From sequence record PQ533662.1: a stretch of DNA of 64,000 nt. One strand, 5' to 3'. The notes under the pieces are model-generated. The model was not told the origin of the DNA, searched no databases, and saw nothing but the letters and a program-made list of their open reading frames with translations. The translations under genes and the position numbers were made by a program. Origin of the DNA: Pseudomonas phage Presto. Below, piece by piece: positions 30,895 through 32,477 of the stretch; position 1 is the first letter of the stretch; each line of letters begins with the position of its first letter.

Positions 30895-31481
30895 TGCTGC
30901 TTGGATCTGTCGGCCTAGCGAGTTGGGTGCGGATTGTGATCACCGCATTGGTACTGACCTTTACTGTTGCTGCTACTTGGAGAGCGGCCGAGTTGCGATT
31001 CGGTGAGCAGATAGCAGCGCTGAAGCTGCAACACGAGCGGGAGCGCCTAGAAGCCAGTCAGGCGGTAGCGGCCGAGCTTCAGCGAAGAACCGAGCAGCGG
31101 CAGCGTCTGGAGGCTGATCTACAGGCGATTGATGAGGAACGTTTCGGAGAGTTACGACATGCGCAAGCTATCAATGATCAGCTTACTGCTGACTTGGCTG
31201 CTGCTCGGCAGCGGCTGCGGGTCCGTATCACCCGCGCCAGTTGTTCCGCTACCGGCATGCCAGCCGGAACCGTCGGCGCCGGCGTGGATGATGGAGCCGA
31301 GTACGCCGAACTTCACCCAGCGATTGCGGCAGATCTTGCCCGTCTTGCAGGCGATGCCGATCAGTGCGCAGTGAAGCTGTCGGCCCTTCAGGCGAGGGAG
31401 GCGATGCGGAAGGGGCGTCGAGGTGAGGATGGGGAAAAAGAAGGCCGAGCGCATTGCCCGGCCTCCTCATTCACTAAATGA
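30894..31481 (+). CDS. i-spanin (Rz-like)
   Basis: N-terminal TM helix followed by an Arg/Glu/Ala-rich coiled coil. Contains an embedded +1-frame lipoprotein gene. Start overlaps the endolysin stop. Confidence 0.65.
   Translation: MLLGSVGLASWVRIVITALVLTFTVAATWRAAELRFGEQIAALKLQHERERLEASQAVAAELQRRTEQRQRLEADLQAIDEERFGELRHAQAINDQLTADLAAARQRLRVRITRASCSATGMPAGTVGAGVDDGAEYAELHPAIAADLARLAGDADQCAVKLSALQAREAMRKGRRGEDGEKEGRAHCPASSFTK
31159..31374 (+). CDS. o-spanin (Rz1-like lipoprotein) embedded in the i-spanin gene
   Basis: MRKLSMISLLLTWLLLGSGC has a lipobox (LLGSGC) and is Pro-rich, in the +1 frame inside 30894-31481. Confidence 0.65.
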   Translation: MRKLSMISLLLTWLLLGSGCGSVSPAPVVPLPACQPEPSAPAWMMEPSTPNFTQRLRQILPVLQAMPISAQ

Positions 31482-31548
31482 TCTCGATCACTAAGCTGAT
31501 GATGGCACGCGCCAGCTCCAGCAGTGCGAGGATTATCTGCGATTTCAT
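31474..31548 (-). CDS. Possible 24-aa hydrophobic peptide (type I toxin-like?) - speculative
   Basis: MKSQIILALLELARAIISLVIEII. It lies at the edge of a low-GC non-coding region, next to a long hairpin and a bidirectional terminator. Confidence 0.2.
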   Translation of the reverse strand: MKSQIILALLELARAIISLVIEII

Positions 31549-31583
31549 ATGCAGCTCTCCATCAGGGTGAGCCTGACTTTGTG

Positions 31584-31637
31584 GAGAACGTGTGGTATCT
31601 TCAATTTTGTCAGGAATCGAAGGGGTAACACGTTCTC
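31584..31637. other. Long stem-loop (10-bp perfect stem GAGAACGTGT/ACACGTTCTC, 34-nt loop), possible sRNA element
   Basis: Seen directly in a non-coding, low-GC region. Confidence 0.4.
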
Positions 31638-31677
31638 TGGTCCGACGAGGTCAGGGGGCCGCCGAACCCTTTCATTC

Positions 31678-31715
31678 AAAGAGCCCGAGGTTCCAGCCTC
31701 GGGCTCTTTCTATTT
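31678..31715. terminator. Rho-independent (likely bidirectional) terminator
   Basis: AAAGAGCCCGAGG-ttccag-CCTCGGGCTCTTT followed by TCTATTT, with an A-rich stretch upstream for the other strand. Confidence 0.75.
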
Positions 31716-32014
31716 AACCTCCCCGCAGGTCCAATGTTTCAGGACGCACCTCGCTGAGCCAGTTATGTCCTGGTGCAGAGTTTTGGTGAGGTTGAATAAA
31801 GTCTAAGTTGATTTGCTCTCTTGGTGCAAGTTTTTTTCCAAAGTTGTAAGTGTGCTTATACATGTGCGGCGCTATGAGCCAGTGTTTGGGCGGTGGCGGC
31901 GTTTAAACACGGTCGCATCTAGCCTGGAGTTGGTCTGTGAGGCGTTCAGAGAGAATGCCTACGTTGGGGGGAGGAGCCGGGGTTGTGAGCTGTAACCCCC
32001 GGTTGTAGAGGGTT

Positions 32015-32023
32015 CTGGGTTTT
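32015..32023. repeat. Homopolymeric G9 tract
   Basis: TTTTTGGGGGGGGGTGATGG in the non-coding cargo region. Confidence 0.6.
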
Positions 32024-32059
32024 TGGGGGGGGGTGATGGCGCGACTACGTTGATCTCCA

Positions 32060-32340
32060 ATATTTCGGTCTGATCTTCTTTTCCGAATACGGATGGCCAA
32101 TTAGGGTGGTCAACTTAGAATGCTTGCTTACTCTCCTAATTTCGGTAGTGAAGCGATTGTGCGTAGGTTGCTGCTAGTTTCATGGCCTAAGATGGGTAGC
32201 CAACTAGGGTAGGTCATTAAGTCTTCGTCTTCTTTTGGAGTGTACGTATTTAAACGTATATTCTCGTTCGAGCTTGCTTCCTTAATTTCGGTAGTAGAAT
32301 TCGACAAGGCGCTTGCAGACTTCGTAGCGAACCGAAATTC
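32060..32340. repeat. Shuffled imperfect repeats (three motif families, two copies each) in non-coding DNA
   Basis: GATGGCCAATTAGGGTGGTCAACTTA at 32092 matches GATGGGTAGCCAACTAGGGTAGGTCATTAA at 32193. GCTTGCTTACTCTCCTAATTTCGGTAGTGAAGCG at 32122 matches GCTTGCTTCCTTAATTTCGGTAGTAGAATTCG at 32272. CTTCTTTTCC at 32069 matches CTTCTTTTGG at 32228. An inverted AATTTCGG occurs at 32321. Confidence 0.5.
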
Positions 32341-32477
32341 TGCTTCGATCCAGCAGACTATGTGGGCTCTCTGATCAGGTTTATGATCGGCCTTCGGTGT
32401 GCAAGCGTTTGCACACGTCAGGGGCGCTAGCCGCTAAGGCGTTAGACTATGAGCTTTCATAGACGGAAGAGGCACAA

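Follow-up and report, generated by a model that had tools for sequence, protein, structure and literature searches.

What does the roughly 1 kb of DNA between the lysis genes and the prophage end of Pseudomonas phage Presto (sequence record PQ533662.1) carry? In the stretch of 64,000 nucleotides (nt) that we analysed, called the window from here on, an earlier note had described this interval as low-GC cargo with a hairpin, a terminator, a G9 tract and shuffled repeats, and had offered two readings: structured RNAs, possibly with a small hydrophobic peptide and its antisense RNA, or degenerate arrays of binding sites. The window comes from a P. aeruginosa prophage; the 88-amino-acid (aa) protein encoded directly to the right of the interval (32478-32744) has identical copies on 805 contigs, and its cluster names are those of P. 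aeruginosa. We find that the interval (~31433-32477, ~1,045 bp) is a cargo insertion in a moron hotspot and consists of two unlike halves; its anatomy, its patterns of conservation and its lack of ordinary coding capacity can be read directly from the comparisons below. The left part, ~31431-31895, reads as a compact, self-contained minus-strand gene for a 24-residue peptide. Tentatively, and at somewhat less than an even chance, we interpret this half as a new type I toxin-antitoxin-like module of P. aeruginosa prophages, going by its sequence and its relatives.

A probable 24-codon gene on the minus strand

Three versions of the interval can be compared: the window allele (W), that of phage vB_Pae_U6 and its relatives (U6), and a third found in the relative L098. 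Module A (to 31715) is ~80% identical between the window and the U6 type. Module B (31716-32398) is unrelated DNA of similar length in U6-type prophages, with the exception of its left part (to ~31895), which aligns at ~65-70%. Identity resumes exactly at 32399 with module C (32399-32477), which is 90-93% identical to U6-type prophages. L098 joins a U6-like module A to a window-type module B, the junction lying at the terminator at the end of module A. Wide scans of viral, genome-representative and metagenome collections, queried with a back-translated pattern of the peptide and with the invariant block described below, returned no further allele families, only the same two and one metagenome copy. 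Assembly GCA_023818395.1 matches the window allele at 100% over 31400-32480.

Between 31425 and 32480 only one ATG start is accompanied by a Shine-Dalgarno (SD) sequence, and it opens the 24-codon minus-strand open reading frame (ORF) that the earlier note had placed at 31474-31548 (MKSQIILALLELARAIISLVIEII; codons 31548..31477, stop 31476-31474). The SD, GGAGAG (31555..31560, minus strand; GGAGAU in U6 and L098), lies 6 nt upstream of the ATG. The same ORF is the only one with both signals in the U6 allele, its antisense partner excepted. W and U6 differ at 19 of its 72 nt (26%), distributed 6:1:12 over codon positions 1:2:3, while 17 of the 24 residues are identical and the rest are conservative replacements (S/L, Q/E, V/M, I/L, I/V); the ratio of nonsynonymous to synonymous substitution rates (dN/dS) is 0.12. 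Within the allele groups we count four synonymous and two conservative changes (K2R, A8V), and four variants of the peptide occur in the relatives. The SD, start, stop and terminator are kept in both alleles. Taken together, the codon-level comparisons indicate that the ORF is under purifying selection, and we regard the small gene as probably real. The earlier claim that no credible protein gene fits the interval holds for everything else in it.

The peptide encoded by this ORF is a hydrophobic, amphipathic helix with a grand average of hydropathy (GRAVY) of 1.73, a hydrophobic moment (muH) of 0.37 and a net charge of 0, and its polar residues E11, R14, S18 and E22 form a stripe on one face. 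As a hydrophobic and amphipathic ORF of fewer than 60 aa with its own translation signals, it fits the peptide part of the generic definition of a type I system, and it is our candidate toxin. TisB and DinQ, two E. coli type I toxins, are amphipathic helices of 27-29 residues with a narrow polar or charged stripe that depolarise the inner membrane (PMC8309996, PMC5066626). The stripes are D5/K12/Q19/D22/K26 in TisB and E17/R20/Q24 in DinQ (PMC8309996), and length, hydropathy and moment are similar in the peptide described here; DinQ also has ALLELIR where this peptide has ALLELAR. The relation is one of resemblance, not of homology: the peptide falls into none of the known type I toxin families that were compared (Hok/Gef, Ldr, TisB, DinQ, Ibs, ShoB, ZorO, Fst, TxpA, SymE and others).

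One GenBank coding sequence, WZB35111.1 of vB_Pae_U6 (68 aa, hypothetical protein), covers the same locus on the same strand (L001 3072-3278, equal to PP003918.1 39408-39614). The peptide makes up its last 25 residues, and its first 43 codons correspond to the RNA leader; 64 contigs carry the 68-aa sequence in identical form. We considered the 68-aa ORF as the real product and rejected it. The extension lies in another frame in the window and is closed there, 33 nt that are identical between the alleles are read in different frames, and only 24-25 codons are conserved as protein, so that the call is most likely an over-extension. ORFs of 24 codons are skipped by gene callers and annotation pipelines. 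At 22 of 22 P. aeruginosa genome places, reached through four members of the 88-aa protein cluster that carry the insert-linked allele of that gene, the ~1-kb gap and the module are present, and in 0 of the 22 is a gene called there.

The small gene has its own predicted ends. Right after its stop, within the 3' extension of the Rz spanin ORF, lies an intrinsic terminator on the minus strand (31431..31468) with the stem GGCCGGG/CUCGGCC and a U run. Its consensus fold is a 12-bp hairpin in which the alleles show only one-sided, pair-preserving changes, and one pair is a G-U on the minus strand that would be an A-C mismatch on the plus strand; in U6 the terminator reads GGCCGGG-CAGUGUA-CCCGGCC followed by UUCUUUUUU. 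At the other end, a candidate promoter (31800..31837, minus strand) consists of TTGCAC (31829-24), an 18-nt spacer and TAGACT (31805-00), preceded by a UP-like A7 tract (31831-37). In U6 the homologous position holds TTGATT-18-TAGAAT (9/12), with an A9 tract and a spacer that has diverged. When both alleles were scanned for promoters under relaxed settings, only two candidates were positionally conserved, one on each strand.

A messenger RNA (mRNA) from this promoter would start near 31793 and carry a structured leader of ~245 nt. In its predicted 5' domain (31716..31794, minus strand) the first bases, AACCUC, would pair with those directly ahead of the terminator hairpin. All three versions are predicted to close this stem, each with bases of its own: W with AACCUC/GAGGUU, U6 with AACCCUGU/ACGGGGUU, and L098 with ACCUC and the G run of an 8-nt insertion. 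Upstream of the candidate promoter, a conserved block (31838..31895) containing GCTTATA and GAGCCAGTGTTT (31876-87) is a possible regulator-binding region; the latter motif shows no excess in the rest of the window. Each of the two B alleles, otherwise unrelated, has two copies of GAGCCAGT(G)T(T) (31756-31767 and 31876-31887 in the window; 3473-3484 and 3582-3593 in L001), at relative positions that differ between the alleles; this motif may be a regulator-binding site near the candidate promoter. Inspection by eye gave no LexA box close to either of the promoter-like sites.

Predicted structured RNAs on the two strands and a proposed switch

Module A folds far beyond shuffled sequences (z -3 to -7). 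At its heart are 33 nt (31570..31602) without a single difference between W and the U6 type, in flanks that differ by ~20%. On the plus strand this invariant block reads as a promoter, with CTGACT (31573-78), a 17-nt spacer and the extended -10 TGgTATCTT (-10 at 31596-31601), at the same position in both alleles; on the minus-strand RNA it carries an anti-SD, GUUCUCC. Its sole change in any allele, G31590C (G to C) in L098, restores a pair of hairpin 1 (31584..31637; GAGAACGUGU/ACACGUUCUC), the 10-bp perfect stem with a 34-nt loop that the earlier note had reported and that we recover at 31584-31593/31628-31637. Position 7 of this stem is G-C in W, G.G in U6 and C-G in L098. Strand-specific pairing was scored over seven distinct alleles, and for hairpin 1 92.9% of the cells are paired on the plus strand and 83.3% on the minus. 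Hairpin 2 of the predicted peptide mRNA leader (31640..31669, minus strand; GGUUCGGCGG/UCGUCGGACC) has the opposite preference, with 100% of cells paired on the minus strand versus 75.7% on the plus; both bases differ in two of its pairs (U-A to A-U, G.U to U-A) and one base in two others.

To the right of hairpin 2 lies the intrinsic terminator of the late (lysis) operon (31678..31715, plus strand), a 13-bp perfect stem (31678-31690/31697-31709) with a 6-nt loop. A simple terminator scan missed it, and U6 keeps the stem with different bases. It had been called strong and bidirectional: strong it is on the plus strand, where the tail CTATTT is U-rich, but the minus-strand tail, GAAUGAAA, is poor and bidirectionality is only weakly true. 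On the minus strand it would be a leader hairpin. A transcript from the plus promoter-like site, starting ~7 nt after the -10 and ending at this terminator, would be a cis-antisense small RNA (sRNA) of ~107 nt (31609..31715), our candidate antitoxin. Its predicted fold has an energy of -53.2 kcal/mol (z -5.2), and in the structure model of the plus RNA 99.3% of cells are paired and two pairs have both bases replaced; the same model on the minus strand pairs 74.5%. The strand-specific, compensated helices support structured RNAs on both strands in a manner that is suggestive, not proof. The earlier idea of a hydrophobic peptide with an antisense RNA thereby finds comparative support over the left ~460 bp, in the selection on the ORF, the promoter-like sites and the compensated helices.

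From this convergent layout we infer two transcripts, a toxic peptide and a switch between two folds. The minus-strand promoter (31829-31800) would drive an mRNA with, in order, the 5' domain, the back side of the lysis terminator, hairpin 2, hairpin 1, the SD GGAGAG, the coding region of a peptide that is TisB/DinQ-type in its physicochemical properties, and the dedicated terminator. The plus promoter in the invariant block would drive the ~107-nt antisense RNA, which would be fully complementary to the leader and reuse the lysis-operon terminator. As long as hairpin 1 is intact, it would hold the anti-SD GUUCUCC and leave the SD free. Once the antisense RNA binds the 5' arm of this hairpin, or the resulting duplex is cleaved, the anti-SD would be freed, close on the SD and block translation, even though the antisense RNA does not itself cover the SD. 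In folding models of W, U6 and L098 alike, the minimum-energy fold of a leader that lacks the 5' arm of hairpin 1 does pair the anti-SD with the SD. Late lytic transcription, running antisense through the whole gene up to the terminator at 31678-31715, could add a second layer of silencing.

Several points weigh against this toxin-antitoxin interpretation. The peptide has no match in Pfam, NCBIfam, PHROGs or PADLOC, even at a permissive E-value; it is shorter than most characterised toxins and has three charged residues within its hydrophobic stretch, and its similarity to DinQ is not significant, with E = 1.6 even in a tiny database. The antisense plus frame, which has wobble positions in common with the ORF, also has a low dN/dS (0.19), and for that reason the strand is assigned by the position-2 pattern together with the SD and the terminator. 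In the window the two promoter-like sites match weakly (8/12 and 7/12), and the standard promoter scan reported neither. The alleles are few: only 2-3 are independent, each compensatory change is essentially one event, and the helices were derived from the same sequences on which they were tested, with inflated controls. No antitoxin or sRNA family in Rfam (Sok, IstR, Sib, OhsC, RdlD, SymR, PtaRNA1 and others) matches the region, the interpretation covers only half of the interval, and the plus-strand structures could be the 3' untranslated region (UTR) of the lysis operon and not a separate sRNA.

Two of these points can be detailed. The antisense ORF on the plus strand (25-30 aa) was itself weighed as a candidate and set aside: it has no SD in the window allele, six second-position changes and a stop whose position shifts. 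The Rfam search of 30000-36000 was empty at E<=1, as was that of the whole window at the gathering score; two relatives gave chance-level hits only (E 0.57 and 0.96), and no credible family emerged for the region.

What would the locus be if its peptide were not a toxin? The ORF could encode a non-toxic small membrane protein expressed from the prophage, a moron perhaps for superinfection exclusion or for modulating a host membrane protein; the plus-strand structures would then simply belong to the lysis operon, as its 3' UTR and terminator, and a dedicated sRNA would not exist. All the evidence for a real ORF applies equally here, the slot is a moron position, and hairpin 1 pairs better on the plus strand (92.9% versus 83.3%), where it could form only in read-through late transcripts and not in the predicted sRNA. 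Phage peptides of this size that lie in the inner membrane and block pili are known from P. aeruginosa (PfsE of Pf phages), which also speaks for such a role. We nevertheless rate this alternative as rather unlikely. It leaves unexplained why 33 nt with the same extended -10 promoter-like site are invariant in both alleles, why a compensated helix that leaves out the 5' arm of hairpin 1 is specific to the plus strand, and why the complementarity of anti-SD and SD is conserved.

Still less probable, in our view, is that the whole interval is non-functional, a patch of decayed cargo and recombination scars in which the ORF and the promoter-like sites arose by chance beside an operon terminator. 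Such decay would fit the lack of a family match of any kind, the small number of independent alleles and a right half that is unstructured, indel-rich and replaceable. It sits poorly with an ORF that keeps 17 of 24 residues despite 19 changes in 72 nt, only one of them at a second position, with conserved SD, start, stop and terminator, and with compensated helices on both strands. Nor is decay readily squared with how widespread the module is (the 88-aa protein on 805 contigs, the module at every place sampled).

The right half of the interval and its cargo slot

The right half of the interval, B-right (31896..32398), is allele-specific DNA, replaced by unrelated sequence in U6-type prophages, and it is non-coding by every test. 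It contains no SD-led ORF. The ORFs of the B region (44-65 aa) and its six-frame translations, in both alleles, have no match in Pfam or PHROGs; a six-frame query of B found nothing at E<=0.01 among 5.8 billion protein clusters, and none of these ORFs exists as a called protein anywhere. Relatives carry indels of 1, 2 and 8 nt in B-right, the 1- and 2-nt ones inside the longest ORFs. An overlooked gene or pseudogene in B was rejected on these translation searches, uncalled ORFs and short indels.

The earlier note had located three shuffled motif families, each present twice, at 32060-32340, and had suggested structured non-coding RNAs or arrays of binding sites. Two of the families do exceed chance: TAGCCAAYTAGGGTRGGYCA has 2 matches versus 0.03 expected, and CYTAATTTCGGTAGT has 2 exact copies and 3 matches with <=3 mismatches versus 0.53 expected. 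The third is a short T-rich run, and the order of the motifs is the same in both copies. The repeats fit a degenerate local duplication of ~100-146 bp (32092-32149 / 32191-32295), as judged from their order. The inverted copy ACCGAAATT (9 bp, 32331-39) could form pairs with AATTTCGGT, and a promoter-like site (TGGCCA-16-TAGAAT, 32094-32121; 9/12) overlaps repeat copy 1, which, with the excess over chance, favours an RNA or a binding-site array. Yet the folding energy is like that of shuffles on either strand, Rfam has no match, the motifs are absent from the U6-type allele in the same place and from the rest of the 64-kb window, GGA is not enriched, no CRISPR repeat is mimicked, and relatives have 1- and 2-nt indels between the motifs. 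We therefore hold functional RNAs or binding-site arrays in this part to be improbable: the sequence folds like shuffles, tolerates indels, is replaceable and has motifs found nowhere else.

More specific candidates for B-right were rejected as well. A structured non-coding RNA anywhere in it finds no support in a sliding fold, whose z runs from -1.2 to +1.3 across 31880-32399, as in shuffles. A sponge for Rsm/Csr finds no support either, since GGA motifs are not enriched. As a CRISPR-repeat mimic (an RNA anti-CRISPR), its best matches to type I-F, I-E and I-C repeats are no better than those of shuffles. Operator motifs used throughout the phage do not fit repeats that are absent from the remainder of the window. 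For a type III toxin-antitoxin system (ToxIN-like), the repeats are two degenerate copies at variable spacing and not a regular tandem array; the 88-aa protein matches no toxin family and mostly occurs in prophages that lack the repeats.

A G9 tract that could switch phase by slipped-strand mispairing had been a further attraction of the locus. The tract exists, at 32025-32033 and not at 32015-32023 (an offset of 10), in the window and L099 only; L093 has G7TT and most relatives have GGGTGGTTTTT. The run is strain-specific, no ORF or conserved promoter overlaps or depends on it, and a phase-variable homopolymer switch is not supported. Another G run (31966-31971) varies from G6 to G8 among near-identical relatives. 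Such length differences could be slippage or homopolymer sequencing error, with no evident consequence. The G9 run and the repeats are probably incidental, and these eye-catching features are the ones least likely to matter.

Lying between the module and the 88-aa gene, B-right is most likely a spacer or a regulatory leader; we would guess at a long leader or promoter region of that gene, a Rho-type insulator that guards against read-in on the minus strand, or a neutral spacer. The U6-type B allele, although unrelated in sequence, has the same length, low GC and strand skew and has small duplications of its own. One possible, if doubtful, reading is a long untranslated leader or promoter of the 88-aa gene that may also act as a Rho-dependent insulator against minus-strand read-in from the SRAP side, shielding the peptide module. 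Such a role is compatible with the toxin-antitoxin interpretation of the left half. Both unrelated alleles are low in GC and have G>C and T>A on the plus strand, so that the minus-strand RNA would be C-rich (C/G 1.4-1.5); that RNA would be almost unstructured (-9 to -29 kcal/mol per 120 nt), a weak terminator-like hairpin lies on the minus strand at 32357-32339, and the conserved leader at 32399-32477 follows directly. Against this, the case is purely compositional, the whole window already has a positive GC skew, and the 88-aa gene is expressed without such a region in most related prophages.

The conserved leader of the 88-aa gene (32399..32477, plus strand), which coincides with module C, comprises the palindrome GTGTGCAAGCGTTTGCACAC, the hairpin CTATGAGCTTTCATAG and the SD AAGAGG. 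Its folding z is -2.4 on the plus strand and -3.8 on the minus. The perfect palindrome could be an operator or a hairpin, and CTATGAGCTTTCATAG lies just upstream of the SD. The leader is found only in prophages that have the 1-kb insert.

The placement of the interval as cargo in a hotspot near the prophage end, proposed earlier, is borne out by its relatives. In most related prophages, fetched via the 88-aa protein, the insert is missing and the 88-aa gene directly follows the spanin; in five (L009, at 3128-3931, L010, L049, L055 and L067) a 267-aa Dam-like methyltransferase fills the same slot. The 1-kb insert is tied to one allele group of the 88-aa gene. Low GC was correctly noted, at 0.42-0.55 across the interval versus ~0.65 in the flanks, with G>C and T>A on the plus strand.

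The gene order is tail genes, endolysin (GH19-type, 30265-30894), Rz/Rz1 spanins, the ~1-kb interval, the 88-aa gene (phrog_3944, unknown function; 32478-32744), the SRAP gene and a 171-aa gene close to the prophage end. The Rz ORF (30864-31481) contains the embedded Rz1 (31129-31374). It does end at 31481, as had been stated, but in window-type prophages its last ~15 codons are read-through beyond the U6-type Rz stop (equivalent to ~31433): this extension (31433-31481) crosses the small-gene terminator and enters the last codons of the small gene, and the PHROG profile match for Rz stops at residue 182/205. The SRAP gene (32726-33415, minus strand) converges on the 88-aa gene, and their 3' ends overlap by 19 nt (32726-32744); there is no evident terminator between them, and each may be read antisense to the other. 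A 433-aa integrase gene lies downstream in the window (34895-36196), which has no tRNA or tmRNA. The host genes flanking the right prophage end vary (L092-L101, L147-L158: kup, an alpha/beta hydrolase, a BNR protein, a NACHT protein, an AAA protein, an integrase), so that prophages with this right-end module occupy several chromosomal sites.

Known type I systems and P. aeruginosa prophages

How does the proposed module compare with characterised type I systems? The mRNAs of TisB and DinQ have long structured 5' UTRs in which alternative folds set access to the SD, and an sRNA pairs upstream of the SD (PMC8309996, PMC5066626). The switch proposed here is alike in spirit to the mutually exclusive folds of IstR-1/tisB, OrzO/zorO and dinQ (PMC8309996, PMC5397157, PMC5066626). 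The antitoxins of TisB/IstR-1 and DinQ/AgrB are trans-encoded and only partly complementary, whereas a cis-encoded RNA with full complementarity is predicted here; they are also chromosomal and LexA-controlled, unlike this locus, where no LexA box was seen by eye. For dinQ, 5' processing activates translation, whereas the shortened form of the leader described here is predicted by folding to be inactive.

ZorO/OrzO and Hok/Sok share with the proposed module an antisense RNA that acts on a long toxin 5' UTR, which hides or exposes the ribosome-binding site (PMC5397157). They differ in that their peptides are unrelated to this one, that a mok-like leader ORF is missing here and that nothing in the region matches Sok or OrzO in Rfam. 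In Gram-positive bacteria, prophage systems (B. subtilis txpA/RatA and bsrG/SR4; C. difficile phiCD630-1) and the plasmid system pAD1 par (fst) likewise pair a small hydrophobic toxin with a convergent antisense RNA. They are thought to stabilise their element, and the par RNAs share a bidirectional terminator (PMC8309996, PMC6563280). Their two RNAs overlap at the 3' ends, as opposed to the 5'-leader overlap predicted here, and they come from another phylum with no sequence relationship. Sok is cis-encoded inside its toxin leader, like the RNA predicted here.

According to a review, all characterised toxin-antitoxin systems of P. aeruginosa are type II (PMC9966142), and for P. syringae there is only a prediction of hok/sok (PMC8790059). 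That the locus is a new family of prophage type I systems and the first in P. aeruginosa, with an antitoxin RNA that shares the terminator of the lysis operon and a toxin mRNA antisense to late transcription, is a possibility that we regard as doubtful. By analogy with known systems, prophage maintenance or defence is the likely role.

On that doubtful reading, the choice between lysogenic and lytic state would be coupled directly to a peptide that dissipates the membrane potential, and a lysogen could use this peptide to maintain its prophage or for abortive defence. Holins are triggered by depolarisation, and for this reason the peptide could also affect when lysis occurs, although a link to holin triggering is speculation. 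Many clinical P. aeruginosa genomes apparently contain the module. If it is real, the accessory repertoire of temperate phages in an important pathogen would gain a membrane-active small peptide and a regulatory RNA, with possible effects on prophage stability, persistence and phage defence.

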